A stretch of DNA of 64,000 nucleotides from Dehalococcoidia bacterium (GCA_034422355.1 DAOUJS010000146.1:898-64897), one strand, 5' to 3'. Positions 6,881-63,948 are shown, numbered from the stretch's first letter. Made by a program: numbers and translations. The notes: generated by a model from the letters alone, not told the origin.

Positions 6881-6909
6881 TTGACACTATTTTGCCCGCC
6901 CGATAACAT
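6881..6909 (+). promoter_or_regulatory. sigma-70-type promoter TTGACA-17-TAACAT
   Basis: TTGACA at 6881-6886, 17-nt spacer, TAACAT at 6904-6909. Gives a leader of about 128 nt before the ATG at 7044. Confidence 0.5.
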
Positions 6910-6975
6910 GATTAGCGGACACAGCGTTGCCTCCGCCCGGCCTCGCCACACTATCGGAGCCGCTGTCAGACTGGA

Positions 6976-7033
6976 GACGGGTCCTATCCGCCGCTCCCCG
7001 GCCGGCACGCTGGCATGGGTGCGGCGTTCTCAG
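6976..7033 (+). repeat. dispersed ~57-nt repeat, copy A
   Basis: GACGGGTCCTATCCGCCGCTCCCCGGCCGGCACGCTGGCATGGGTGCGGCGTTCTCAG. Near-identical 5' module to copies B, C and I. Confidence 0.85.
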
Positions 7034-7043
7034 GAGGTGCCGC

Positions 7044-7661
7044 ATGTTGAGAAAACGGCCTGAACAAGTCAAGACCGCCCCTGACCAGGGTAAGGGAGAG
7101 CGCGTCCCGCCGGGTCAGTTCCTCACCACCAAGTTTCCGGTGCTAACCTACGGCTCCACACCCAAGGTGGACCTGGACACTTTTTCGTTAAAGCTGTTCG
7201 GGCTGGTGGAACGGGAGGTCGAGCTTAGCTGGAAGGAGTTCACGGGTCTTGAGTGGACCACGGTCACGGCAGACTTCCACTGCGTAACCCAATGGAGCCA
7301 GTTGGACAATACCTGGGAGGGAGTTACCCTGGCCACGGTCGCAGGGCTGGCGCGGCCAAAGCCCCAAGCCAAGTTCATCATGGCCCACTGCTACGGCGGT
7401 TACACAACCAACCTGCCGCTGGACCTGGCGATGGAAGAGGGGCTTCTCGCCCACAAGCAGGAAGGGAAGGAACTGGGAGAGGGTCACGGTTGGCCGTTAA
7501 GGCTCGTCGTTCCCAGCCGGTACGGGTGGAAAAGCGCCAAGTGGGTCAACGGCATTGAGTTTATGGCGGAAGACGCCCCCGGATTCTGGGAGCAGCGCGG
7601 TTACAACAATGACGCCGACCCGTGGAAGGAAGAGCGTTTCTGGCCTGAATTGACCCGTTAA
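7044..7661 (+). CDS. sulfite-oxidase-like molybdopterin-dependent oxidoreductase (soluble catalytic domain)
   Basis: FHCVTQWS, GWPLRLVVPSRYGWKSAKWVNGIEF. ATG at 7044 is preferred (AGGAGG SD 6 nt upstream). The ORF-track start at 6927 runs through the repeat. Confidence 0.85.
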   Translation: MLRKRPEQVKTAPDQGKGERVPPGQFLTTKFPVLTYGSTPKVDLDTFSLKLFGLVEREVELSWKEFTGLEWTTVTADFHCVTQWSQLDNTWEGVTLATVAGLARPKPQAKFIMAHCYGGYTTNLPLDLAMEEGLLAHKQEGKELGEGHGWPLRLVVPSRYGWKSAKWVNGIEFMAEDAPGFWEQRGYNNDADPWKEERFWPELTR

Positions 7662-7758
7662 CCCATCGGGCAGGCAATCCTGCCGCCTCACTGAACGCAA
7701 AAAGGCCCGGGGCCAGGCGAAAGCCCAACCCCGGGCCGATCCTTGGAACTCTACTACG

Positions 7759-7944
7759 TCAGGCGACCTTCAGTTCCTGTTCCCTTTCCTCACCGTGCGC
7801 CGGAGCGGGAGCAGACTGCTGCTCCACGAGAGGCAGGTCCTTCAGGTAACCACACTGGAGACAACTCAGGTACTTCCCGAAGATGTCCTCGGCAAGATAG
7901 AGGTCGCCACGGCATTTGGGGCAGAACTTGAACTTGATCATCAC
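7759..7944 (-). CDS. small zinc-ribbon protein
   Basis: MMIKFKFCPKCRGDL...CLQCGY (CxxC-x17-CxxC). Strong GAGGAGGAAAGGAG SD directly upstream. Start is GTG at 7944 or ATG at 7941. Confidence 0.5.
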   Translation of the reverse strand: MMIKFKFCPKCRGDLYLAEDIFGKYLSCLQCGYLKDLPLVEQQSAPAPAHGEEREQELKVA

Positions 7945-7990
7945 TCCTTTCCTCCTCGCGGGTGTCTCCTTCCTCTCTTAGCTCACTCAC

Positions 7991-8029
7991 ATTATCAGCC
8001 TTGACACGGCATGTGTCAATATGTATCAT
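7991..8029. promoter_or_regulatory. overlapping divergent promoters sharing a TTGACA-N7-TGTCAA palindrome (HAIR-like HspR operator candidate)
   Basis: Plus strand: TTGACA 8001-8006, 17 nt, TATCAT 8024-8029. Minus strand: TTGACA (rc of 8014-8019), 17 nt, GATAAT (rc of 7991-7996). Confidence 0.5.
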
Positions 8030-8234
8030 ACAGACACTATCTTAATCAATGAGACTTGGCGATGCCGGACGAAGGGCAGTGGATTACTACCTCCTGGAAA
8101 TTCGTACCTTGTCAATCAGTGTCCTACGAATATCATAACAAGCCGGTATTACCTGTCTATTACGACGAGGAGATATTGCCGGATTCGTCTCGACCGGGAT
8201 ATTCGTCAAATCAGGCCCCGTCGGGCTACCTTAT

Positions 8235-8291
8235 CTGAGAACGTCGCCCCATACCAACGTTCCGGCCGGGGAGCGGCGGATAGGATCCGTC
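8235..8291 (-). repeat. dispersed ~57-nt repeat, copy B (reverse orientation)
   Basis: The reverse complement reads GACGGATCCTATCCGCCGCTCCCCGGCCGGAACGTTGGTATGGGGCGACGTTCTCAG. Confidence 0.85.
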
Positions 8292-8309
8292 CCCAGAGGG
8301 AGCAGACAA

Positions 8310-8813
8310 ATGCAGCAACGTTCTAAAACCAGTGTGCAGACCCAGACCAATACGCGCCGCCAGCGGCAGCCTTCTTTGGCAGAAGAGTCACGGTTGGCGA
8401 GGGCAGCCCACACGCGAGCAGACGAAGCCGCCGGGCCTAATGCACGAGACCAGCAACCGGACCCGCAAATGGAAGGGGTTTACATCATCAGCGTGGCTGC
8501 CCGAATCCTGGACGTTCACCCCCAAACGCTGAGAAAGTACGAACGGCTCGGCCTGATTAACCCCGGAAGGACCCTGGGAATGCTCCGGCTGTATTCCAGG
8601 GAGGACATTCGCAGGGTGCGGCTGATCCAGTACCTGTCCGGCAACCTTGGGTTGAATCTGGCCGGGGTTGAGTTCGCCCTTGGGATGGTGGAGAAACTGC
8701 TCCTGTTCCGGGACAGGGTGGATTCGGTATCCAGGGACACCCCGCTTCAGGAGACTATAGAGCAGGAACTGGCCGCGCTGTTCAAGTCCACCGGCCTTCC
8801 ACTGGACGACTAG
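8310..8813 (+). CDS. hspR: MerR-family heat-shock regulator HspR-like
   Basis: YIISVAARILDVHPQTLRKYERLGLINPGRT...RLYSREDIRRVRLI is a MerR/HspR helix-turn-helix, and the gene lies directly upstream of grpE-dnaK. The start is uncertain. ATG at 8310 has a GAGGGAG SD. An alternative ATG at 8469 would remove a 53-aa low-complexity N-terminus. Confidence 0.8.
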   Translation: MQQRSKTSVQTQTNTRRQRQPSLAEESRLARAAHTRADEAAGPNARDQQPDPQMEGVYIISVAARILDVHPQTLRKYERLGLINPGRTLGMLRLYSREDIRRVRLIQYLSGNLGLNLAGVEFALGMVEKLLLFRDRVDSVSRDTPLQETIEQELAALFKSTGLPLDD

Positions 8814-44503: not shown

Positions 44504-44570
44504 ACTTGCGACGCGTACCGATAGCCACAAGGATGGTACATTTTCGACCTGGATAATGCAACCGATTGGA

Positions 44571-44636
44571 GACGGGTCCTATCCACGGCTCCAAGGCCGG
44601 CTCGCATGTTCGCATGTGTGGGGCCGTATCCGCCGG
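44571..44636 (+). repeat. dispersed ~57-nt repeat, copy I (5' module conserved, 3' half diverged)
   Basis: GACGGGTCCTATCCACGGCTCCAAGGCCGGCTCGCATGTTCGCATGTGTGGGGCCG... The first ~32 nt nearly match copy A. Contains a TCGCATGT tandem duplication. Confidence 0.75.
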
Positions 44637-44639
44637 TCA

Positions 44640-46067
44640 TTATGTATCCCGCCGCTCCGGGTCCTGTTCACTTCGCTCCTGCTCTTCTACAAACTGGCTC
44701 AATTCCGTCCAATCCGACCGCAGCCTGTCCAGTTCCTCGTCTGACACCTGGGACGCGCCGTAGTAGGCAACCTGGAAATCATCCACGATGCGCCCCACCG
44801 GAGCGACGGGTAAAGCGCCGTCCAGAGTTCCCTCGTGTTCCTTCGGAGTCTGCCAGTCCGCCCGGTTGCGTCCACGTCGCGCCGCCAGGGTCAGCATCGC
44901 GTGGTAGAACTCGCGCGGGTCCCTCGGAACAGGAGGACGCGGCAGCCTGCGGCGGCCCAGGGACATCACGTTGCCCAGAAGGCTGTTCGCCAGTGCGGAG
45001 AGGTCGTCATTTACCCGGCTCCAACTGAACACCGACTCGCGGGTCTCTTCCACCTGGCCAGGGGACCTCAGGAAACGCCGGAATCTGTAGATCTTGTAAA
45101 GCAGCCAACCGGCCAGGGAAGCCCCGATCAGGAATCCCAGGAGCTTCAGAGCAGCGACCAGCAGTGGAGGCAACCCATTGTCGCCGACTCCTTCCCGCAT
45201 CGTCTCGTGAAACTGGCGTATCTGTTCCTGCGCCCTGGCCAGACCGCTCAGGTCTCCGCCGCCGAACCGCTCGGAGACCCAGGTGCCCAGGGCAACCAGC
45301 AGCCCGGCGATGTAACCCAACGCCAGCAGGACCGGTTTCAAGACCCAGAAGCCTATGGCGCCTATCAGCTTCAACAGCCAGCGGGTGACGTCATCCAACC
45401 CTCCCAAGCCCGCCGCGCTCAGCACAAGGCCGGCCAGGAGCACCAGCCCGACACACACGGTGATGGGAATCCACCAGTTCATCCCCATCACCTGGCCCTC
45501 CCCGGCCTCTGACGAGAACCTGGCCAGCGACAGGCCCACCAACCCAACCCCAAAGAATCCAACGATCAGGAAACCATTGATCAAATCGGCGGAACTCATG
45601 CTGTGTAGGACCACCGCAAAGAACAAGACCACCAGCCCCCATTGGAACGAAGTGCGCACGGCATCCAGGGATACTTCGTCATGGGCAAGTGAACTGCTCC
45701 TCCACCAAAGCAGTACCAGAAATGCGAATGCCAGCACTTGCCGCAAGGCAACCCCGATTCCTCCATCCATGAACGCGCCAATAGGGATGATGCCGTTCCC
45801 TGTAGCCATGTGGGACAGGATGAGCACAGACGCCAGGCTGGCCGCCAACCCGATTGTCCCTCTAAGGTTGGCGGTGAACCGGGTCGTCTGCACGTACAGA
45901 GACAGGAGGTAGGCCCACAATACCCCCAGCCACACGACCCAGAAGGGCAGCACGGGCAAGCGTTGCTGCACCGCAACACCGACAATGTTGAATATCAGAT
46001 AGAAGCCGCAGGCTTCCAGGAACATCACCACGCCAGTGACCAGGCTAGTGCGAAGAAGCGGACTCAT
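44640..46067 (-). CDS. polytopic membrane protein with C-terminal DUF4129-like domain
   Basis: About 9 TM segments. C-terminus DPREFYHAMLTLAARRGRNRADWQTPKEH...FQVAYYG fits the DUF4129 pattern. Overlaps the DUF58 gene. Confidence 0.7.
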   Translation of the reverse strand: MSPLLRTSLVTGVVMFLEACGFYLIFNIVGVAVQQRLPVLPFWVVWLGVLWAYLLSLYVQTTRFTANLRGTIGLAASLASVLILSHMATGNGIIPIGAFMDGGIGVALRQVLAFAFLVLLWWRSSSLAHDEVSLDAVRTSFQWGLVVLFFAVVLHSMSSADLINGFLIVGFFGVGLVGLSLARFSSEAGEGQVMGMNWWIPITVCVGLVLLAGLVLSAAGLGGLDDVTRWLLKLIGAIGFWVLKPVLLALGYIAGLLVALGTWVSERFGGGDLSGLARAQEQIRQFHETMREGVGDNGLPPLLVAALKLLGFLIGASLAGWLLYKIYRFRRFLRSPGQVEETRESVFSWSRVNDDLSALANSLLGNVMSLGRRRLPRPPVPRDPREFYHAMLTLAARRGRNRADWQTPKEHEGTLDGALPVAPVGRIVDDFQVAYYGASQVSDEELDRLRSDWTELSQFVEEQERSEQDPERRDT

Positions 46068-47268: not shown

Positions 47269-47483
47269 ACGGCTCCTCTGAGAAGTGGTTCCTCCGCGCA
47301 GAGGACCCGCCTTTCCAGCCAGGAACTTCGCCCCATGCCGCCGTGCTGGCCGGGAAAACTCCGGATCCGGGGCTTGAGTAGGATGCTTCCCCCGGTGTGT
47401 TCAGTGTTTGTGGGTGGCAATAGTTAGCATCCAATATCGAGCACCCGGGTAGTCGCCCCCTGACCATCGACTGTATGCCGCTG

Positions 47484-48452: not shown

Positions 48453-48617
48453 GACCGTTCGGAGCGCTTGGCGCAGTCGAAGGGCGTTCCACCAAGAACG
48501 TCGCCCCACACCGCGATGCCAGCCGGGGAGCGTCGGTAGGAACCGTCCCCCGCGAGGGGAAGGTCAGCCGCCGCCACTGGCCGGTCCAGTGGGCCGTATG
48601 GAGCCGACTTTCTCGCG

Positions 48618-49444: not shown

Positions 49445-49505
49445 GGATGTGGCTACCCAAGCGGGTCACGGGGAACTCTGAGAGGTACTGTTCTCAGTAA
49501 GGTAG
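49445..49505 (+). repeat. dispersed repeat, copy G (3' module conserved)
   Basis: GGATG...(53 nt)...TGTTCTCAGTAAGGTAG. Shares GTTCTCAG(A)TAAGGTAG with copy B and has the same GGAT-to-CTCAG length as copy E. Confidence 0.55.
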
Positions 49506-49713
49506 AGGTTCGATGATACCCGTAATGTGGGTTAGGCGCTACCGCTCTATGTGGTTGAGAAAATTGCGAAACCCACTTGTGCGGAGAATGGGCTGCGGAA
49601 GGGGATTAATCCGTGACGACAACCGCAATCGGCAAGTTGGAAGTGGTCAATGAGTTTCAAGGAAAAGTGGCTTGAGTGACACGTCTCCGGTTCGTTTGTT
49701 GTTTGCAAAAATG

Positions 49714-49738
49714 AAAAGGGCCGGAAATCCGGCCCTTT
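49714..49738 (-). terminator. rho-independent terminator (bidirectional)
   Basis: AAAA-GGGCCGG-aaat-CCGGCCC-TTT. On the minus strand the stem is followed by TTTTCATTTTT. Confidence 0.75.
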
Positions 49739-49748
49739 GTTTATCGGT

Positions 49749-49889
49749 TCAGACATCCCGTGATGGGGTTCGGGTAACATCGCGCTTTGGTGGCGGCGGT
49801 GGCGGCGGTGGCGGCTTGGTGACGTTATTAGGCTTCGGATTGAATCCCTTTTTAATTGTGCTGGGTGGAGGATTCGGTACTCTTACCAT
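49749..49889 (-). CDS. 46-aa proline-rich basic peptide (not in the ORF track)
   Basis: MVRVPNPPPSTIKKGFNPKPNNVTKPPPPPPPPPKRDVTRTPSRDV. GGGAGG SD 6 nt upstream. Starts 22 nt after the upstream stop and is followed by the terminator. Confidence 0.4.
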   Translation of the reverse strand: MVRVPNPPPSTIKKGFNPKPNNVTKPPPPPPPPPKRDVTRTPSRDV

Positions 49890-49911
49890 TTCTTACCTCC
49901 CTGTCAGTAAC

Positions 49912-50499
49912 TTATCTCGACCTTAGGTATTCTACCATAATGACGTCGTTTGCGGGAACGACTACAGCGACCACGTCCTCCAAGGGTATACGGCACTCTC
50001 CATCTAGCCATTCAGCGTCAGCGATCCTGAAGTGGCCTCTGTCGGGACTGGACGGCCATTCCTCCGGCCATCCGTATAGTCGTCGGTCTCCTTGTAAATG
50101 TAGAACCACATAGCAGTCGTCATTTTTGAAGAAGGAAGAGTACCATACCGATGGATAAGCGCCTTCTTTGGTAATCTTGATGAATCGAAGCAGTGCATGT
50201 AACCAGTCGTGGTTGAAGACTAAAGAAGCGAGCAACCCCATTAGTACTGCGATTATCGCAGCTAGGATAATATCTACATGTTGACGTTCATGAAAGTCTA
50301 TCAGGGGTGTTTTGTTGCTTATCCATAGAATAAATACTGTGATCGCCTGGATCAAGCTGGTGAAAATCAGAGCCTGGAATATACGCTCGAATTCACTGGG
50401 CTTCGGATGAGATGTGAGAGAATGGAAAATAGCTCCGGCCACGAAACCAGGCAGCAGAAAAGTGAGGATGTTTACAATTTCACTAGATGCCCAATTCAA
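49912..50499 (-). CDS. hypothetical membrane protein (3-4 N-terminal TM helices plus soluble C-terminal domain)
   Basis: 195 aa in a visibly AT-richer segment. TTG start. I cannot place the family with confidence. Confidence 0.6.
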   Translation of the reverse strand: MNWASSEIVNILTFLLPGFVAGAIFHSLTSHPKPSEFERIFQALIFTSLIQAITVFILWISNKTPLIDFHERQHVDIILAAIIAVLMGLLASLVFNHDWLHALLRFIKITKEGAYPSVWYSSFFKNDDCYVVLHLQGDRRLYGWPEEWPSSPDRGHFRIADAEWLDGECRIPLEDVVAVVVPANDVIMVEYLRSR

Positions 50500-50648
50500 G
50501 GTATCGTTCCATGTTCCTGATGTCTAATGGAGGCTCCATAGCCAGACTCAACCCTTAAGAGAGGAGAGCAATTGCCAAGGTGATGATCGGCCATGACCTC
50601 ATGGTACATTATCTCACCAAGGAGGTCTCCAGTCATGAGGTAAATGAG

Positions 50649-50719
50649 CTACCCGGCCTGGGTTCGAACCAGGGATTTCAGCTCCAAAGGCTGACGTGTT
50701 GCCACTACACTACCGGGCA
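50649..50719 (-). tRNA. tRNA-Gln (anticodon UUG)
   Basis: Manual cloverleaf. Acceptor TGCCCGG/CCGGGTA with U1-A72 and G73. D stem GTGT/ACAC. Anticodon stem TCAGC/GCTGA with loop CTTTGGA. T arm CCTGG-TTCGAAC-CCAGG. CCA is not encoded. Confidence 0.9.
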
Positions 50720-54435: not shown

Positions 54436-54690
54436 ATGGACTCCAGCATCATCGGCAAGATCGATAAGGCCAGGAAATACGCTGAGGAGAAAGAGCGGGT
54501 CACCATCTCCGAGTTGAGTGTCCTATTTGAGGGGAACCACAACACCTATCAAGTGGACTTCAGGTCGGGTACTTGGTCTTGTGAGTGCCACTTTTTCCAG
54601 ACCAGGGGTGTGTGCAGCCACATCATGGCCCTTCAACGCATGCTGGCTGGGATGCTGGTCCAGAAGGAGAACGCGACGGCGGCATCCTAA
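54436..54690 (+). CDS. SWIM zinc-finger protein
   Basis: CECHFFQTRGVCSHIMAL equals CxC-x9-CxH. GGAGG SD. Confidence 0.7.
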   Translation: MDSSIIGKIDKARKYAEEKERVTISELSVLFEGNHNTYQVDFRSGTWSCECHFFQTRGVCSHIMALQRMLAGMLVQKENATAAS

Positions 54691-54692
54691 GG

Positions 54693-54750
54693 GACGGATC
54701 CTATCCGCCGCTCCCCGGCCGGCACACTGGCATGAGACGACGTTCTTCAG
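54693..54750 (+). repeat. dispersed ~57-nt repeat, copy C
   Basis: GACGGATCCTATCCGCCGCTCCCCGGCCGGCACACTGGCATGAGACGACGTTCTTCAG. Starts 3 nt after the SWIM stop codon. Confidence 0.85.
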
Positions 54751-54854
54751 TGTGGGCAGTGGCTAACCACTCATTTCACTAGCCGCTGACAACCGGCCAC
54801 CAACCACCCGAGGCACGGGTCCAAGACGCGCGCACCGGCCCCACACACCGGAAA

Positions 54855-54911
54855 CGTGGATCCTCAGCGTCCGCTCCGGTCCTCCGCCAGTGTATGGGGC
54901 AACGTTCTCAG
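54855..54911 (+). repeat. dispersed ~57-nt repeat, copy D (diverged)
   Basis: CGTGGATCCTCAGCGTCCGCTCCGGTCCTCCGCCAGTGTATGGGGCAACGTTCTCAG. Lies 59 nt upstream of the MFS start. Confidence 0.7.
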
Positions 54912-54969
54912 ATATGAAGGGCCGCACAGGTTGCAGCAAGAAGAAGGTCAAACAGGCTCCAAGACCCGC

Positions 54970-56361: not shown

Positions 56362-57720
56362 TTGCAGCAGTCTTTGTTGGGATTTCTCGTTGTCGGACTG
56401 AACCACCGTAGCGCGCCCTTGGAAGTGCGCGAAAGGTTATCCCTTAACCCCGGCCAGATACCCGGCGCATTGGCAGCCATGGACCAATTCGGGGTTCCCG
56501 GCGCTATTATTTCCACATGCAACCGCTCCGAGTTTTACACTCTGGAGCCGAGTGGCCCTGTGGGCGCCGGACACTCCCAAGGACGGATCCTCAACAGCCG
56601 GGGCGGCCCCACCCCGGGTACGGAGCCGCATTCTCAGTGGGGAATCGGTGACCGACGATGCAGGGAATTCCTGGTCGACTACTTCGACATTCCACTGGTG
56701 GAAGTTGAGCGATACCTGTACTGCCACCGGGACCAGGACTGCATCAGACACCTGTTTCGCGTTGCTTCCAGCCTGGACTCCATGATTCAGGGTGAGGACC
56801 AGATCATAGGCCAGGTCCGGGAGTCCCTGGAAATCGCGTTGCACGCAGGGACCATCAAGGGCCCCCTGCTCCAGTTGTTCCAGCAGGCGCTCCGCGTGGG
56901 ACGGAAGGTGCGCCGGGAAACCGGAATCGGAAAGAACGCGCTCTCCGTCAGCCGCGCCTGCGTCGAGATGGCCAGGGGCACACTGGGAGACCTGAGTCAA
57001 CTCCAGGCGATGGTGGTAGGCGCAGGAGATGCCGCCGGGCTGGCTGCGAAAGTCCTGAACCTGTCCGGGGTCAGGGAAATAACCGTGACCAACCGCACCC
57101 ATGAACGTGCGCAGGAACTGGCAAGGAATCTTTCCGGCCGGGCGGTCCCGTTCAACTGTATGCAAGGAGCGCTCACGCAGGCCGACCTGGTAATTTCCTG
57201 CACCGGTTCTCCCGGCTACGTCCTGACTTCTGGGGCTGTAAAGTCTGCAATGGAGGCACGGCCGGACCGCCCGTTGTTCCTGCTGGACATAGCCGTTCCC
57301 CGGGACATTGACCCCGCTTCTGCAAACATCGGCAATGTGACCCTACATGACGTAGACGACCTGGACGCGATTTCCGACACATACCGGCTGGAGCGGACCG
57401 CCGAGGCAGGAGAGGCAGAGCAGGTCGTCGAGGAAGAGACCGGCAAGTTCGTCGATTGGTGCGCCGCTCAAAGGTCTCTGTCCACCGTCGTGGCGTTAAG
57501 GGAGCAGGCCGAACAGATGCGCCTGCACGAGATTCAGAAGACCGTTCGCAGAGCAGACCTGGAGTTCAACCCCGAGCAGATAGCCGCCTTGGACGCAATG
57601 ACCAAAGCGCTGGTCAAAAAGCTGCTACACGGTCCGACGGTCTACCTGAAGGACCACGGCGACTCCGTAGACTTGGGCTTGACCAGGGAAATGTTTCAGC
57701 TACCACAGGAAGACCCATAA
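56362..57720 (+). CDS. hemA: glutamyl-tRNA reductase
   Basis: VVGLNHRSAPLEVRE, STCNRSEFY, ASSLDSMIQGEDQIIGQV, VVGAGD. TTG start (56362, 56374 or 56377). Carries a ~27-aa insertion after the catalytic-Cys motif. Confidence 0.9.
   Translation: MQQSLLGFLVVGLNHRSAPLEVRERLSLNPGQIPGALAAMDQFGVPGAIISTCNRSEFYTLEPSGPVGAGHSQGRILNSRGGPTPGTEPHSQWGIGDRRCREFLVDYFDIPLVEVERYLYCHRDQDCIRHLFRVASSLDSMIQGEDQIIGQVRESLEIALHAGTIKGPLLQLFQQALRVGRKVRRETGIGKNALSVSRACVEMARGTLGDLSQLQAMVVGAGDAAGLAAKVLNLSGVREITVTNRTHERAQELARNLSGRAVPFNCMQGALTQADLVISCTGSPGYVLTSGAVKSAMEARPDRPLFLLDIAVPRDIDPASANIGNVTLHDVDDLDAISDTYRLERTAEAGEAEQVVEEETGKFVDWCAAQRSLSTVVALREQAEQMRLHEIQKTVRRADLEFNPEQIAALDAMTKALVKKLLHGPTVYLKDHGDSVDLGLTREMFQLPQEDP
56582..56637 (+). 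repeat. dispersed ~57-nt repeat, copy E, inside the hemA coding sequence
   Basis: GACGGATCCTCAACAGCCGGGGCGGCCCCACCCCGGGTACGGAGCCGCATTCTCAG. Same termini and length as the intergenic copies. Confidence 0.65.
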
Positions 57721-57786
57721 CGGCCCGGCCCTCTAGCTGCGGCAAACTGACCGACAAGTCTTGGAGCATCAACAAAGTCTCACACA

Positions 57787-58446
57787 GTGACCATGCCATC
57801 TCTAGTTGATAAATACGCCCTGCTCCCCAACGAGATCGACGACCTCAGCCTCCGCATGGTGGAAGACTCCCTGCCAGAGTCTCTCGATCTGACCGGCGGG
57901 GAACGCTACGTGGCGTGCCGCATCGTGCGCGCGGAAGGGGACCCTGACATCGCCTCTGACATCCGTTTCAGTCCCGGGTCCGTGGAGCGCGGACTCGATG
58001 CACTGAAGAATGGGGCTGATGTTGTCACCGACGTCCGCATGGTCCAGGTGGGCATATCCCGTGCATTGCTCAACCGTTACGGAGTTTCGACCCACTGCAT
58101 GATTGACACCCCGCAGACCCATGAAAGAGCGCGAAGGGAAGGCACGACCCGTTCCGTGGCGGCGGTCCGGGAGCTTGCCCCGCAGATGGAAGGCGCGGTG
58201 GTGGCCGTCGGCAATGCCCCAACCGCCCTGCTGGCCCTTCTGGATCTAATCAGGAACGGCGAGGTATCCCCGGCCCTCGTCATAGGGATGCCTGTGGGCT
58301 TCGTCGCTTGCGCCGAGTCCAAGGACGAGCTAATCGCAACCGACGTCCCGTATATGACCATCGTCGGGCGCAGGGGCGGCAGCTCTGCCGCCGCCGCAAC
58401 GGTAAACGCACTGCTGGGACTGATGTCCCATGGAGCAACGTCATGA
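57787..58446 (+). CDS. cbiC: precorrin-8X / cobalt-precorrin-8 methylmutase
   Basis: VVAVGNAPTALLALL, ALVIGMPVGFV..ESK. Confidence 0.9.
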   Translation: MTMPSLVDKYALLPNEIDDLSLRMVEDSLPESLDLTGGERYVACRIVRAEGDPDIASDIRFSPGSVERGLDALKNGADVVTDVRMVQVGISRALLNRYGVSTHCMIDTPQTHERARREGTTRSVAAVRELAPQMEGAVVAVGNAPTALLALLDLIRNGEVSPALVIGMPVGFVACAESKDELIATDVPYMTIVGRRGGSSAAAATVNALLGLMSHGATS

Positions 58447-59357
58447 CCCAAGTGAATCGTCCCGACTCCAGGGCGGACAATAATAGTCCCCGCGGCCCCT
58501 GGGGTGTGGTGCTGGTTGCCCACGGCAGCCAGCGGGGGGCCACGTCCGCCGAATGTTCCTGCTCCTGGGGCATTCCGGAGTCGGAAACGCCGGAGTGGTG
58601 CCTTCATTGCCCCAACACTCCCAAAGGACTCAACGACGCCACCGTCCGGCTCCAGGAAGCGCTGGGAGAGGACCGGGCCAGGGTGCAGCTCTCCTGCCTG
58701 GAGTTCATAGAACCCCGGCCGGACCAGACGATTCAGGATATGGCCGCCCAGGGATTGCAACGGGTAGTAGTTATGCCCTACCTGCTTGGCCAGGGAAAGC
58801 ACGTTACCCTGGAAATGGACGAAGTGCTGGATGAGGTGAGGGGCGACCTGCCGGGCGTGGACCTTCATCTGGCCGATGTGCTCGGACCAGACCAGCGGAT
58901 GGCCGATGTGGTGGTGGAACGGGTCCTGTCTCTGGACAGCCCGCCCCCGTCCGAATCGCATACGACAGGAGTTCTGATAGTTAAGGCCGGCACCAAGAAC
59001 CAGTACGACGATTGCATCTGGCTCCACGAGTTGGGCAGTATCGTGGAGTCAGACTTGGGCGAGGGCTACGCCGTGGCCGTAGCCCAGTCCCACTACGGAG
59101 ACCCTACCGTAGAAACAGGTGCAGCCCAACTCGTGGACGACCGTGGGGTATCCCGCATAGTCGTCGTTCCGTATGTCTTCTTCCCCGGCCTGATCCTGAA
59201 GCGAAACGTGCTGGGAGGGTTGGACAGGCTGAGCGCCAAGTATCCGCATATCTTCATGGCCGTTACCCCCCCGTTGGGCACCGACGAAAGAGTGGTCCAG
59301 GTGGCAGCCGACCGCGTCCGCCAGGTGTGGGACCGGGCCGGGCAGCACAGTCACTAG
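58443..59357 (+). CDS. cbiX: two-domain sirohydrochlorin cobaltochelatase CbiX
   Basis: VVLVAHGSQRG..., VVVMPYLLGQGKH, second half VVVPYVFFPGLI. ATGA overlap with cbiC. Has a Cys-rich insertion. Confidence 0.82.
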   Translation: MTQVNRPDSRADNNSPRGPWGVVLVAHGSQRGATSAECSCSWGIPESETPEWCLHCPNTPKGLNDATVRLQEALGEDRARVQLSCLEFIEPRPDQTIQDMAAQGLQRVVVMPYLLGQGKHVTLEMDEVLDEVRGDLPGVDLHLADVLGPDQRMADVVVERVLSLDSPPPSESHTTGVLIVKAGTKNQYDDCIWLHELGSIVESDLGEGYAVAVAQSHYGDPTVETGAAQLVDDRGVSRIVVVPYVFFPGLILKRNVLGGLDRLSAKYPHIFMAVTPPLGTDERVVQVAADRVRQVWDRAGQHSH

Positions 59358-59383
59358 AGCAACTGCAGAAGCAAGAGTCCAAG

Positions 59384-60583
59384 ATGACCGAACAGTCCAA
59401 CAGCCAGACCCATGGCGAAAGCGACTACAGCCGCCAGACGGTGCGCCGGCGCGGGATGCGCACCGGGTACACCACCGGGTCCACCGCCGCGGCTGCAACC
59501 AAGGCCGCTGCACTGACCTTGCTGACCGGAAACGAGACCCGTGACGTCACCATATCCCTGCCGGTGGGGCGGGATGCAGAATTCTCGGCACACAGGAGCG
59601 AGATCTCGGCAGACGGCGGCAGAGTAACCTGTGCCGTTCTCAAGGACGGGGGAGACGACCCGGACGTGACCCACGGAGCGGAGATTTGCGCCACGGTCTC
59701 CCTTGAGCCCAGCGGCACGGTGGGCGACCCGGTACGCGGAGGCGTGGGCGTCGGCACCGTCACCCGTCCGGGCACCGGCATCCCGGTGGGAGACCCGGCG
59801 ATAACACGAGTGCCCAAGCGCATGATTCTCCAGTCGTTGGAGGACGCCGCTGCACTATGCGGCCTGCCCGACGGGATGGAGTTGGCCGTCGAGATCTCGG
59901 TGCCTGACGGAGTGGAAATAGCCAAGAAGACCACCAACAGCCGTCTGGGAATCCTGGATGGCATCTCCATACTGGGAAGCACCGGCGTGGTGCAGCCCTA
60001 TTCCACCGCCGCGTGGCGGGCCAGCGTCCATCTCGCCATCGACGTGGCGGCGGCCAACGACCTGTCTCACCTGGTGCTGACCACCGGCACGCGCAGCGAG
60101 GCGTTCGCCAAGCAGCGCCTCGACCTGCCGGACATGGCGTACATCGAAGCAGGGATTTTCAGCGGACATTCGATGAAGCGATGCGTCATGCGGCAGGTGG
60201 GCCGCGCGACCCACGCCGGCATGGTGGGCAAATTCTCCAAAATGGCGATGGGCTACTTCGTCACCCACGTCGCGGGCAACCAGGTGGACACGTCATTTCT
60301 TGCCAGGCTTGCCGCCGAATGCGGCGCTTCTCCCAAGGTGCAGGAAGAGATGGCCGGAGCCGCCAGCGCCCGCCACTTCCAGGAAATCGCCCAGGAAAAC
60401 TCGCTCCTTTCGGTGTTTCCCCTGATGTGCCAGCGTGTCTGCGAGCAAAGTCAGAAGTATCTGGGGGACGACTCCGAGTCCCTGGTCATAGATGCCCTTT
60501 GTTTCGACTTCGACGGCACCCTGCTGGGGTCTGCATCCACGTCCCCGGACGGCATCCCGCTCCTTCCCGACCCCGGAGCCTAG
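59384..60583 (+). CDS. cbiD: cobalt-precorrin-5B (C1)-methyltransferase
   Basis: GMRTGYTTGSTAAAATKAA, GGDDPDVTHG, GILGSTGVVQPYS. Confidence 0.92.
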   Translation: MTEQSNSQTHGESDYSRQTVRRRGMRTGYTTGSTAAAATKAAALTLLTGNETRDVTISLPVGRDAEFSAHRSEISADGGRVTCAVLKDGGDDPDVTHGAEICATVSLEPSGTVGDPVRGGVGVGTVTRPGTGIPVGDPAITRVPKRMILQSLEDAAALCGLPDGMELAVEISVPDGVEIAKKTTNSRLGILDGISILGSTGVVQPYSTAAWRASVHLAIDVAAANDLSHLVLTTGTRSEAFAKQRLDLPDMAYIEAGIFSGHSMKRCVMRQVGRATHAGMVGKFSKMAMGYFVTHVAGNQVDTSFLARLAAECGASPKVQEEMAGAASARHFQEIAQENSLLSVFPLMCQRVCEQSQKYLGDDSESLVIDALCFDFDGTLLGSASTSPDGIPLLPDPGA

Positions 60584-60587
60584 TCTC

Positions 60588-61202
60588 ATGGTTGAGACCC
60601 GCAATTCTACTGCGTATAGGCCACTGGGTCTCTCTGACGAGGACTTCGAGCAGCGCCGTCCTCTCAGAGGCCAGATCACCAAGCGGGAAGTGCGGGCCAT
60701 GACCCTTTATTCCCTGGGTCTGAGACCGGACAGCATCGTCTGGGACATTGGCGCGGGCACAGGGTCCGTCTCGGTGGAAGCCGGGCTGATCGCCTGCCAG
60801 GGAAGGGTCTACGCCATCGAACGGGATGAACAGAGCATCCCCCTTCTGCAACACAACCTGGACCGGTGGGGCGGCGGCAATGTGTCCATCGTGCCGGGAG
60901 AGGCTCCGGAGGCGCTGGCCCAGTTACCAGACCCGGACTCAGTATTCGTGGGCGGCAGCGGCGGCAACCTGGAGGGAATCCTGGATGTTGTGGGGCAGCG
61001 CATCTCCCGCGCAGGCAACATCGTAGCCAACCTGGCCGCCCTGGAACGCACCCAGGAGGTCTACCGGCGACTCAGTGACATGGGGTTCGCAACCGATCTG
61101 GTTATGGTAAGCGCAGCGCGGGGAAAGCAACTGCCGGACGGCACTCTCCGCCTGGAGTCACTGAACCCTGTATTCATCGTGACGGCCAGGCGGGAGGAGT
61201 AG
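60588..61202 (+). CDS. cbiT: cobalt-precorrin-6B (C15)-methyltransferase, decarboxylating
   Basis: ITKREVRAMTLYSLGLRPDSIVWDIGAGTGSVSVEA. Confidence 0.88.
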   Translation: MVETRNSTAYRPLGLSDEDFEQRRPLRGQITKREVRAMTLYSLGLRPDSIVWDIGAGTGSVSVEAGLIACQGRVYAIERDEQSIPLLQHNLDRWGGGNVSIVPGEAPEALAQLPDPDSVFVGGSGGNLEGILDVVGQRISRAGNIVANLAALERTQEVYRRLSDMGFATDLVMVSAARGKQLPDGTLRLESLNPVFIVTARREE

Positions 61203-61206
61203 TGGA

Positions 61207-61932
61207 ATGAGCGTTGGAGAGTCCACCGCCAGGTTTGGCTGCCTGTATGGGGTTGGGGTCGGACCCGGCGACCCGGAGTTGGTCACGCTCAAGGCAATGC
61301 GGGTGCTTCAGGAAGTCCCGGTCATTTGCGTCCCTCAGGCTGAGACCAGCCGGGACAGCTACGCGCTGGAAATCGTCAAGAGCTATCTTGACGAGGACAA
61401 GCAGGAAATCCTGCGCCTTACCTTCCCGACCGATGACGAGGAAGCGGCGGGCGCGGTGTGGCGGGGAGCGGCTAATTCGGTTGGGGAGCGGCTCGCCAAG
61501 TCCCAGGACGTCGCTTTCATCACCGAAGGCGACCCAATGCTGTACAGCACGTTCTCCTATGTTCTAGACGCAGTCTGCCAAAACTTCCCGGAGGCCCAGG
61601 TAGAGATCATCCCCGGCGTTTCCTCGGTAATGGCGGCGGCGGCCAGCGCCGGTGTTCCCCTGGTCACCCACGGGCAGAGGCTGGCTATCCTGCCGGCGGT
61701 CTATGGCATCGACGACCTTTCCGAGGCCATCGCCAACTACGACACTATCGTTCTGATGAAAGTGAACCGGACGCTGCTGCAAGCCCTGGCCAACCTGGAG
61801 CAACTGGGGCTGGCGGGAAAGGGCATTTACGTACGCAGGGCTTCCACTGCCAGAGAAGAAGTCGTCCGGGACCTGCGCCGCCTGTCCTCCGAGGACTTGG
61901 ACTACTTCTCCCTTCTCATCATCAAGAGGTAA
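61207..61932 (+). CDS. cbiL: cobalt-factor II / precorrin-2 C20-methyltransferase
   Basis: LYGVGVGPGDPELVTLKA..., FITEGDPMLYSTF, IPGVSS. Confidence 0.9.
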   Translation: MSVGESTARFGCLYGVGVGPGDPELVTLKAMRVLQEVPVICVPQAETSRDSYALEIVKSYLDEDKQEILRLTFPTDDEEAAGAVWRGAANSVGERLAKSQDVAFITEGDPMLYSTFSYVLDAVCQNFPEAQVEIIPGVSSVMAAAASAGVPLVTHGQRLAILPAVYGIDDLSEAIANYDTIVLMKVNRTLLQALANLEQLGLAGKGIYVRRASTAREEVVRDLRRLSSEDLDYFSLLIIKR

Positions 61933-61937
61933 CGAGT

Positions 61938-62747
61938 ATGACTATCACGACCGGCAAGGTCTACATCGTGGGCGGCGGCCCCGGCGACCCGGAACTGCTG
62001 ACCCTGAAAGCCAAGTCCGTGATCGAATCGGCAGACGTGATTATCTACGCCGACTCGCTAGTCCACCCCTCCATCGTCGATTTCGCCAAGCCGGGAGCGG
62101 ATGTCTACGGCAGCAAGACCTTGAGCCTGCCCGAGATAATGGACCTGACTCTCAAGTCAGTCCGGGAGGGGAAAACCGTTGCCCGGGTCCAGAGCGGCGA
62201 TCCCTCCATCTATGGCGCGGTCCTGGAGCAGATGCGAGTCCTTGAGGCGGAAGGGGTTGACTTCGAGATCATACCCGGAGTGAGCGCAGCCTTCGCCGCT
62301 GCCGCCCGCCTGAAGACCGAGCTGACAGTCCCCGACGTTTCCCAGACAGTGATCATGACCAGGTTCGAGGGGCGAGTGCCAATGCCCGCCGGAGAGCAAC
62401 TCAAGGACCTGGCTGCCCACGGCTGTACCTTGGTCATTTTCCTGAGCATCACCCGGATGTTCACTATCGTCCGCCAGCTTCTGGAGGCCGGGTACAGCGA
62501 GGATACCCCGGTGGCGGTGGTCTACCGGGTGGGCTGGCCCGATGAGCAGATCATCCGGGGAGACCTGACGGACATCGTGGTCAAAGTCCGGGAAGCGAAA
62601 ATCACGCTCCAGGCCATGATCATGGTGGGGAAGGCTTTCGACCCCGGACTGCTCAAGACCGAACCGGGCGCGGAAAACGGCTTCTCCTCCTCCCACCTTT
62701 ACTCCAGCGACTACACCCATCTCTACCGCCGCGCCCAGGCAGGATAG
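61938..62747 (+). CDS. cbiF: cobalt-precorrin-4 / precorrin-4 C11-methyltransferase
   Basis: KVYIVGGGPGDPELLTLKA, VARVQSGDPSIYGA, IPGVSA. Confidence 0.93.
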   Translation: MTITTGKVYIVGGGPGDPELLTLKAKSVIESADVIIYADSLVHPSIVDFAKPGADVYGSKTLSLPEIMDLTLKSVREGKTVARVQSGDPSIYGAVLEQMRVLEAEGVDFEIIPGVSAAFAAAARLKTELTVPDVSQTVIMTRFEGRVPMPAGEQLKDLAAHGCTLVIFLSITRMFTIVRQLLEAGYSEDTPVAVVYRVGWPDEQIIRGDLTDIVVKVREAKITLQAMIMVGKAFDPGLLKTEPGAENGFSSSHLYSSDYTHLYRRAQAG

Positions 62748-62802
62748 TCCTAAACAGCGCTACTATGGCTACCAAAGCGCCCATAGCGCAGAGTGTCCCG
62801 CG

Positions 62803-63948
62803 ATGAGCCACATAGCCGTAGTTGCCATATCCCGAAACGGTGCGCGTCTCGGACGGGGTCTCTCCGCTGCCCTTGCTCCCGACGCCGCCTTTTTCGTTGA
62901 CCGGCGGTTCATGCTCCACGGGGACAATGGGCATCCCTTCGACCTCCCGGCCAGGCCCGTGGTCCAGCAGGCATTCCGGGGCTACGAGTCCCTGGTCTTG
63001 ATCATGCCGGTGGGGGCAGCGATACGCTTGTTGGCGCCCATGTTGGTCCACAAGCACCACGACGCCGGGGTGGTCTGCGTAGATGACGCCGGAACTTTCG
63101 CGGTCAGCCTGCTCTCCGGCCATTTCGGAGGCGCGGACCGGTTGACCCGGCGGGTCGCCGCGATCATTGGCGCGACTCCCGTCATCACTTCGGCATCCCA
63201 CACCGGCGGAACACTCGCCGTTGACTTGCTGGGCGAGGATATGGGCTGGACGTTGGAGGCCGACTCGACCACCGTTACCAGGTCCAGCGCCGCCGTGGTG
63301 AACGGCGACCCGGTTGGAGTCTACCAGTGCGCCGGAGAACGCGACTGGTGGCAGCCGGGCTCACCTCTGCCGGCGAACATTCACCTCTTCGCCAGCCTGG
63401 AAGAACTTGCCTCGTCTCAATGCGCCGCCGCCCTGGTAATCAGCGATCAGGTCTGCCCCTCTCCCACGTCCCGCAGTGGATACGCCGAATCACTGCCGGG
63501 CAAGGCGGCGGTCGTCTACCGTCCCAAGAGCCTGGTAGTAGGAATGGGTTGCCGCCGGGGTGTGCCGCTGGATGAACTGGAGGCGCTGCTGGACGAAACA
63601 CTGGAGCAGAACAACCTCGCCAGGGCCAGCGTCCGCTGCATCGCCACTGCCGAAATCAAGAGGGACGAAGTGGGCATCTTGCTTCTTGCAGAGAAGCTGG
63701 GAGTAAGTTTAGAGTGCTACAGTGTTGAGGACCTGAACTCCATATTCGAGACTGAGGACACTCCGGAGCCTGCAAGCGTTCCCGGCAGACTTCGGCCCAC
63801 CCCTTCACCTGTAGCGCACAGACTGCTGGGCGTGTGGGGAGTTTCCGAACCAGCAGCCCTGTTGGCTTCAGGGTCTCAAGGCTTACTCGTCACCCGGCAA
63901 AAGACCACCAGGGCCACAATTGCCGTGGCGCGCATCCCGTTTCCATGA
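62803..63948 (+). CDS. cbiG: cobalt-precorrin-5A hydrolase CbiG
   Basis: Three-part CbiG architecture (AVVAISRNG..., VCVDDAG.FAVSLLSGHFGGA, C-terminal VVGMGCRRG...IATAEIK). Confidence 0.88.
   Translation: MSHIAVVAISRNGARLGRGLSAALAPDAAFFVDRRFMLHGDNGHPFDLPARPVVQQAFRGYESLVLIMPVGAAIRLLAPMLVHKHHDAGVVCVDDAGTFAVSLLSGHFGGADRLTRRVAAIIGATPVITSASHTGGTLAVDLLGEDMGWTLEADSTTVTRSSAAVVNGDPVGVYQCAGERDWWQPGSPLPANIHLFASLEELASSQCAAALVISDQVCPSPTSRSGYAESLPGKAAVVYRPKSLVVGMGCRRGVPLDELEALLDETLEQNNLARASVRCIATAEIKRDEVGILLLAEKLGVSLECYSVEDLNSIFETEDTPEPASVPGRLRPTPSPVAHRLLGVWGVSEPAALLASGSQGLLVTRQKTTRATIAVARIPFP

Follow-up and report, generated by a model that had tools for sequence, protein, structure and literature searches.

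Evidence for an in-frame copy of a short dispersed repeat in hemA of a Dehalococcoidia bacterium

Has a short intergenic repeat become part of the coding sequence of a biosynthetic gene, and how would it have arrived and been tolerated there? The question is raised by a stretch of 64,000 nt from a Dehalococcoidia bacterium (GCA_034422355.1 DAOUJS010000146.1:898-64897; hereafter the window), in which the gene hemA (56362-57720, plus strand) encodes a glutamyl-tRNA reductase (GluTR) of 452 amino acids. In-frame colonization of genes by short repeats is known in detail chiefly from Rickettsia, apart from scattered cases of repetitive extragenic palindromes (REPs) elsewhere. An earlier note, made from the sequence of the window alone, had proposed that a repeat dispersed between its genes also lies in frame inside hemA, as a lineage-specific insertion. 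We compared the window with hemA loci of relatives, of which L001, L002, and L005 carry the insert and L003/L004, L006, and L007/L008 are free of it; two further loci, L010 and L014, were fetched solely because they contain the repeat. The nhmmer search with the 13-copy family profile covered both strands of 226 kb. Taken as a whole, the results favor, with a probability of about 85%, a dispersed repeat that was inserted in frame into hemA and is now a tolerated passenger.

The 63-nt insertion in hemA and its kinship to the repeat

The insertion was delimited by comparison with close relatives. The HemA proteins P0004 to P0009 (76-90% identical) are 21 residues shorter at one place, and insert-free relatives reach 90% amino acid identity to the HemA of the window. 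At the DNA level, L003/L004, L006, and L007/L008 read ...CACT|GGGGAA... and leave a clean 63-nt gap in the alignment with the window, whose junctions are ...CAC[T CCCAAG GACGG...TTCTCAG]TGGGGAA.... The inserted segment occupies 56575-56637 on the plus strand, sense and in frame, and its 21 codons specify residues 72-92 (SQGRILNSRGGPTPGTEPHSQ). The junctions could equally be placed 1 nt earlier, at 56574-56636. The insert is 63 nt long in the window, in L002 (97% amino acid identity to the window HemA), and in L001 (86%), and 51 nt long in L005, where 12 nt (4 codons) are deleted at the 5' junction. It was seen in four independent assemblies from different samples, which argues against an assembly artifact. 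Predicted tryptic peptides from the insert region are ILNSR and GGPTPGTEPHSQWGIGDR.

The 56-nt string on which the earlier note was based (GACGGATCCT...GCATTCTCAG) was found at 56582-56637, once in the window and in frame within the 452-residue open reading frame (ORF). Two of the proposed dimensions required correction. The repeat reaches some 6-7 nt beyond 'GACGG' on the 5' side, which makes the inserted unit 63 nt rather than 56 nt long, and the insertion relative to the closest relatives amounts to 21 codons rather than about 27 residues; the further residues by which the protein exceeds the enzymes of E. coli or plants belong to a loop extension common to the wider clade. The proposed position next to the catalytic cysteine holds in terms of sequence, the insert lying 19 residues downstream of Cys53 (codon 56518-56520, plus strand), which was located by the active-site motif STCNRSEFY/TCNRSE. 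In the alignment of homologues, the ends of the insert coincide with those of the repeat unit within 1-2 nt.

The gene that carries the insert is intact. Its reading frame stays open through the insert, and its product matches GlutR_N (E = 1e-40), Shikimate_DH (E = 2e-37), and GlutR_dimer (E = 4e-21) in Pfam, that is, the complete GluTR architecture with an NADPH-binding Shikimate_DH-like domain and a dimerization helix. Matches in the PDB include 4n7r and 1gpj, the crystal structures from Arabidopsis and Methanopyrus, and C53, N54, R55, and E57 are invariant in an alignment of 89 HemA homologues. The AlphaFold2 model has a mean predicted local distance difference test (pLDDT) score of 84.6 and template modeling (TM) scores of 0.70-0.79 to the GluTR crystal structures 4n7r and 5yjl. 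Outside the insert, the ratio of nonsynonymous to synonymous substitution rates (dN/dS) between insert-bearing lineages is 0.07-0.15, indicating that hemA stayed functional after the insertion and is not a pseudogene. We conclude that hemA is under purifying selection and has been functional since the insertion. Neither of the outcomes that the earlier note had set against its own proposal was found: close homologues do not all carry the segment, and the dN/dS values rule out a pseudogene.

Resemblance in termini and length alone would be a weak argument for kinship, since a profile of only the four strong window copies gave E = 12 on the hemA segment. A family profile of 13 repeat copies, trained without any hemA sequence, aligned over the full length of both the window insert (6.5 bits) and the L001 insert (13.1 bits, E = 0.0098 in 226 kb); the latter keeps more of the family sequence (...GGCCGG..CAC..GGTATGGGGCAGCGTTCTCAG), with 68-71% identity. 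Each 63-nt hemA insert was also subjected to 3000 dinucleotide-preserving shuffles scored against the family profile, and the real score was reached by 2/3000 shuffles for the window, 0/3000 for L001, 5/3000 for L002, and 14/3000 for L005. Conversely, a reciprocal profile built from the four hemA inserts alone (window, L001, L002, and L005) found only family copies among its top nine non-self matches, all in the same orientation; the list is headed by the 54858-54911 variant (E = 5e-4) together with a canonical L020 copy (E = 0.0047). The L001 score, the shuffles, the reciprocal profile, and the coinciding boundaries together establish that the hemA insert is homologous to the repeat family. 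The proposed match in termini and length therefore stands as homology with a diverged interior, although the match of the termini would not have sufficed by itself.

The repeat family and its other host genes

The repeat unit is about 63 nt long and reads (C)TGGRG-GACGGATCCT...GCGACGTTCTCAG, the family consensus being (C)TGGRG-GACGGATCCTATCCGCCGCTCCCCGGCCGGCACGCTGGCATGGGGCGACGTTCTCAG. The core from GACGG to CAG spans 56-58 nt, most commonly 57 nt. Five of the six frames of the consensus are free of stop codons. In the window, four strong and three weaker intergenic copies were found, the strong ones with nhmmer E values from 1e-13 to 1e-21. The copy that best matches the family consensus lies at 8235-8297 (minus strand; 71.5-72.8 bits). 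Another, at 6970-7033 (plus strand; 61.5 bits, E = 8e-18), abuts with its 3' end the Shine-Dalgarno sequence and ATG (7044) of a molybdopterin oxidoreductase gene. A copy at 48492-48553 (minus strand; 48-57 bits, with alignment of the spacer) is located between the NTP-transferase and MoxR genes, and one at 54687-54750 (plus strand; 59-69 bits, with alignment) follows straight after the stop codon of a gene of 84 amino acids, upstream of an MFS gene. The spacer of the latter contains a variant second copy (GGATCCTCAGCG...GTATGGGGCAACGTTCTCAG; 54858-54921, plus strand), which scored E = 5e-4 with the profile of the hemA inserts; no other intergenic copy comes as close to these inserts, and its identity to that of L001 is 70%. 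Two copies are degenerate and interrupted by internal insertions, one at 44561-44645 (plus strand; 22-40 bits), between two minus-strand genes, and the other at 47309-47398 (minus strand; 22-43 bits), between MoxR and a DUF58 gene.

Outside the window, family copies were found in two Dehalococcoidia metagenome-assembled genomes (MAGs), one of which is OZ242009.1, a 4.3-Mb Dehalococcoidia MAG chromosome about 96% identical in parts to the window. A scan of species-representative genomes with the conserved 5' half returned, among the matches listed, seven true copies in these two MAGs and five chance matches, and none of the 12 loci that matched the 3'-end pattern GTATGGGGCNNCGTTCTCAG in a scan of JGI metagenomes belongs to the family, which is therefore narrowly distributed. 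Rfam contains no family matching any repeat copy, either in the whole window at gathering thresholds or in 6900-8400 at E values up to 10. Judged from these sequence searches, the repeat family is real and confined to a narrow group of Dehalococcoidia. Comparison of filled and empty intergenic sites with L006 and L001 did not define the ends of the element, because whole spacers had been replaced.

The earlier note had suggested checking other coding sequences for embedded copies, and such copies were found among the fetched repeat-bearing loci. In MAG CATOSP01, a canonical copy (L014:555-623, plus strand; 61.8 bits) lies in the gene of a Rieske ring-hydroxylating oxygenase alpha subunit (ORF L014:1-1374, minus strand), antisense and in frame, and DNA comparison showed it to be a clean insertion of 63 nt, or 21 codons. 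All 24 other aligned homologues (24/24), including one that is 87% identical, are without those 21 residues, and the homologue P0121 (98% identical) has them. With this precedent, the clean 63-nt indel, and the homology tests, the proposal that a repeat became a coding insertion in hemA is supported. A further antisense copy lies in frame (…EDTAAYLRPGTGAADRTRPP…) in a terminase large subunit gene (L010:6866-6936, minus strand; ORF L010:6088-7686, plus strand). The PHROG match of this ORF (phrog_2, E = 8e-39) spans the copy, which is located between the ATPase and nuclease parts and uses the same reading frame as the Rieske copy (…AADR[IT]RPP); this prophage terminase is probably a third case of an embedded repeat. 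Of the independent copies observed, about three of 14 are thus inside genes, and the two verified insertions, in hemA and the Rieske gene, are both exactly 63 nt. A search of 5.8 billion sequences with a concatenate of the five open-frame peptides gave no match, which can be explained by matches of this kind being too short for E values in a database of that size.

Several other features of these copies were observed. At 7027-7046, the end of the repeat (…TTCTCAG) running into GAGG makes the AGGAGG Shine-Dalgarno sequence of the molybdopterin oxidoreductase gene, and the copy at 6970-7033 is wrongly included in the longest ORF, which starts at 6927. The spacer between the 84-amino-acid gene and the MFS transporter gene (54691-54938) cannot be aligned with L001, its flanks being 87-93% identical, and in the equivalent spacer of L002 the second repeat copy carries about 21 nt extra. 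Of the six longer intergenic window copies, all but 44561-44645 are sense to the adjacent transcript, as the hemA copy is to its host transcript; the in-gene copies of the other MAG (L014 and L010) are both antisense, a sample too small to judge orientation. Elsewhere in the window, about 1.19 kb (49459-50647) containing a DUF6338 ORF (49912-50499, minus strand) is absent from the 96%-identical loci L002 and L019; this segment abuts a tRNA gene (50649-50719, minus strand) and may be a small element inserted beside it.

Arrival and fate of the insert

The events in hemA may be reconstructed as follows. A short non-autonomous dispersed repeat of about 63 nt, belonging to a narrow Dehalococcoidia group, would have placed one copy in hemA, in sense orientation, in the loop between the strand after TCNRSE and the next helix, presumably by a transposition-like insertion. 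Because 63 is a multiple of three, the downstream frame would have been kept; the five open frames of six, together with a disordered loop of variable length, would have let the enzyme survive. The hemA copy would then have drifted, with its termini kept best. The predicted structure is compatible with this sequence of events: in the AlphaFold2 model, residues 66-91 have pLDDT values below 50 and form a coil between strand 56-61, after the catalytic motif, and helix 95-108. In 89 Chloroflexota homologues, the loop from Y59 to F103 ranges from 16 to 43 residues, with a mode of 23, and other Chloroflexota lineages have unrelated expansions of it. A disordered, length-variable loop implies that the site is permissive. 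Structure modeling had been suggested as a check for a surface loop; the model supports a disordered loop compatible with the fold.

Several results weigh against a repeat that entered hemA once and has since been a passenger. On its own, the window insert is not significant in the 226-kb search (E = 1.1), and its interior has diverged, with 61-66% global identity to family copies and the best match at the termini. No consistent target-site duplication was found: at most 1 nt in hemA, only an ambiguous 3-nt CGG at the Rieske junctions, and no matching flanks at the intergenic copies. The termini (5' CTGGGGACG, 3' CGTTCTCAG) form nine pairs only with three G-U wobbles, so that 6/9 are Watson-Crick pairs as DNA, and RNA folding of either strand is no more stable than that of shuffles (z-scores -1.3 to +0.8). 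No transposase was found among about 18 proteins examined through Pfam, a sample that was not a systematic screen of the ORFs. The core of the insert is about half as diverged as four-fold sites between the window and L001, which is unlike a purely neutral passenger of the same age, and the flanking DNA does not group these two insert-bearing loci. Classical MITE (miniature inverted-repeat transposable element) or REP mechanics are accordingly unsupported, because there is no consistent duplication, the terminal pairing depends on G-U, and folding resembles that of shuffles. An RNA structure was also considered. The four canonical copies give a consensus fold of -20.6 kcal/mol with three compensatory pairs, which is branched and weak; it collapses to -4.4 kcal/mol once the hemA inserts are added, and single folds equal those of shuffles.

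The flanking DNA bears most directly on the number of insertions. In a 6.8-kb alignment, 130 quartet sites group the window with L007, 106 group L001 with L007, and 77 group the window with L001; the signal is mosaic and close to a trichotomy, and under a single ancestral insertion, recombination or lineage sorting is therefore required. This combination is the most economical history. Two insertions at one site of hemA, 1 nt apart in the window and L001, or precise loss in the L007 lineage, would account for the same conflict and seem unlikely, though far from negligible. The two inserts are indeed offset by 1 nt at the insertion point, so that the L001 insert is one base out of register and is read in another frame (GGTDTQRSGRPRTGYGAAFSG vs SQGRILNSRGGPTPGTEPHSQ), and a single origin would require two simultaneous compensating indels. 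Their 5' ends also differ (TCCCAAG vs TTGGAGG), insert-free L007 is at least as near to the window as L001 in the flanking phylogeny, and both the lack of a target-site duplication and a core less diverged than four-fold sites would suit repeated insertion. However, the inserts of the window and L001 have in common a derived interior (CTCARC.G.CGGG.CGGCCCC.CACCGGGTA), which is missing from canonical copies, and the adjoining 5' flank GGCGCSGGACRCT (amino acids GAG) is limited to insert-bearing alleles. Informative sites near the insert are moreover few and mixed, and recombination among close populations explains the incongruence. If repeated insertion or precise loss had occurred, it would imply a strong target preference or an excision-competent mechanism without target-site duplication, as in the IS200/IS605 family.

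A more far-reaching reading, which we regard as decidedly unlikely, is that the 63-nt element, specific to Dehalococcoidia, in every case a whole number of codons, and open in five of six frames, habitually colonizes genes, leaves no duplication, and either excises precisely or is strongly site-specific, for example by single-strand 'peel-and-paste' movement through an unrecognized Y1-type enzyme. The offset frames, the presence and absence that conflict with phylogeny, and an insert younger than its flanks would then be read as repeated insertion and excision in hemA. Were precise excision or site targeting true, it would point to an uncharacterized mobilization system.

Under the passenger reading, the peptide should be free of constraint, and this is most likely the case: the insert appears to be a tolerated passenger in a permissive loop, and its peptide is probably without function. 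The window and L002 differ at 6/63 sites of the insert and at 19/218 four-fold sites, which is consistent with neutral drift. Between the window (56581-56637) and L001 (L001:7612-7676), the core differs at 11/57 sites vs 76/199 four-fold sites (Fisher p = 0.005). Constraint at the nucleotide level, a later transfer, or separate insertions could each account for this low divergence. Domestication of the insert, whether as a peptide that modulates GluTR close to the active site or to the interfaces with partners, or as an element at the RNA or DNA level in the hemA-cbi operon transcript, would fit that figure. It would also fit the retention of the insert by an important gene in three or more diverged lineages and the fact that the hemA copy, like most intergenic copies of the window, is sense to the adjacent transcript. 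It is nevertheless highly unlikely, since the insert is read in two different frames, has lost four codons in one lineage, evolves at the neutral rate between the window and L002, and lies in a loop predicted to be disordered. Nor do the hemA inserts and canonical copies have a consensus structure in common, as the -4.4 kcal/mol fold, the z-scores, and the lack of an Rfam match attest.

Chance resemblance deserves little weight. The loop would have grown by slippage or indels, and the shared 10-mer start, the 7-mer end, and the length would be coincidental. The E value of 12 from the four-copy profile would agree with this, as would the lack of enrichment of GACGGATCCT with at most one mismatch in the window (8 found vs 5.65 expected) and the status of the loop as a hot spot of unrelated expansions in other Chloroflexota. 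Against it stand the shuffle tests, the significant L001 ortholog, the nine leading reciprocal matches, which are all family copies, and an indel of 63 nt, the same length as the canonical copy proven to be inserted in the Rieske gene. An assembly chimera, or a hemA decaying while another copy works, would make the case an artifact and is barely credible given four independent assemblies, an intact ORF with three domains and invariant catalytic residues, dN/dS values of 0.07-0.15, and conserved synteny with the cbiC-cbiX-cbiD cluster.

This synteny is kept in relatives; downstream of hemA, Pfam matches identified cbiC, cbiX, cbiD, and further corrin methyltransferase genes. The region 56362-63900, with hemA and the cbi genes, looks like an anaerobic-type cobalamin cluster. 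No cobalamin riboswitch was found in the window at Rfam gathering thresholds.

Significance and comparison with known systems

In-frame colonization by a short repeat is hereby extended to free-living uncultured Dehalococcoidia (Chloroflexota), with one case in the first enzyme of tetrapyrrole (haem and B12) synthesis and another in a Rieske oxygenase. As one DNA has been read in two frames in sister lineages, the locus offers a natural experiment on the tolerance of a protein to random 21-residue loop insertions. The repeat also matters for annotation, because its copies give rise to false extensions of ORFs at the N terminus and to 'lineage-specific insertions' that might be taken for functional adaptations.

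Rickettsia palindromic elements (RPEs; Ogata et al. 2000 Science 290:347; 2002 Genome Res 12:808, via PMC10969869) are the closest parallel in behavior. RPEs, in the account of PMC10969869, are about 100-150 bp long and clearly palindromic; they code for a conserved peptide and are found in obligate intracellular alpha-proteobacteria that are AT-rich. Going by that description, the Dehalococcoidia repeat resembles RPEs in being dispersed both between genes and in frame in unrelated genes (here hemA, the Rieske oxygenase, and the terminase), in insertions compatible with fold and function, and in being open in several frames. We found intergenic and in-frame copies in intact genes, and the insertion site in HemA is predicted to be compatible with the fold. 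Unlike RPEs as characterized there, the element is 63 nt long, GC-rich, read in at least three frames, and hosted by free-living Dehalococcoidia, and the stable hairpin of RPEs is not found in it (z-scores -1.3 to +0.8). Membership in RPE-1 to RPE-10, compared by description, was rejected on the unit length of 63 nt vs about 100-150 bp and on the host.

Intragenic REPs tagged by GTAG or CGTC (Di Nocera et al. 2013, PMC3733652) are mostly extragenic and sometimes inside genes, where they add tens of residues without functional constraint; the CGTC type has no dedicated transposase. REPs are single hairpins of 20-40 bp with a stem of 8-9 bp, a loop of 4-5 nt, and a short tail, often forming head-to-head dimers (PMC3733652). 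The present repeat is likewise small, mostly extragenic, and occasionally in genes, and CGTC occurs near both its ends on the antisense strand. It differs in its 63-nt length, its weak branched predicted fold, and the lack of GTAG and of dimers among the copies seen; REP membership was rejected because GTAG is missing, CGTC is subterminal, and the stem-loop geometry is lacking. Prokaryotic MITEs, such as ERIC, BOX, and the Anabaena MITEs, include some in-frame ORF insertions (review PMC10969869). Like them, the repeat is non-autonomous, too short for a transposase, polymorphic in presence and absence among close relatives, and occasionally inserted in frame into an ORF. MITEs, however, have DNA-level terminal inverted repeats and target-site duplications. 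Here the ends pair fully only with wobble and no consistent duplication was found, and membership was rejected for lack of the duplication. The repeat is therefore a new family of a known phenomenon, which behaves like RPEs and intragenic REPs and is a member of neither by sequence or size.

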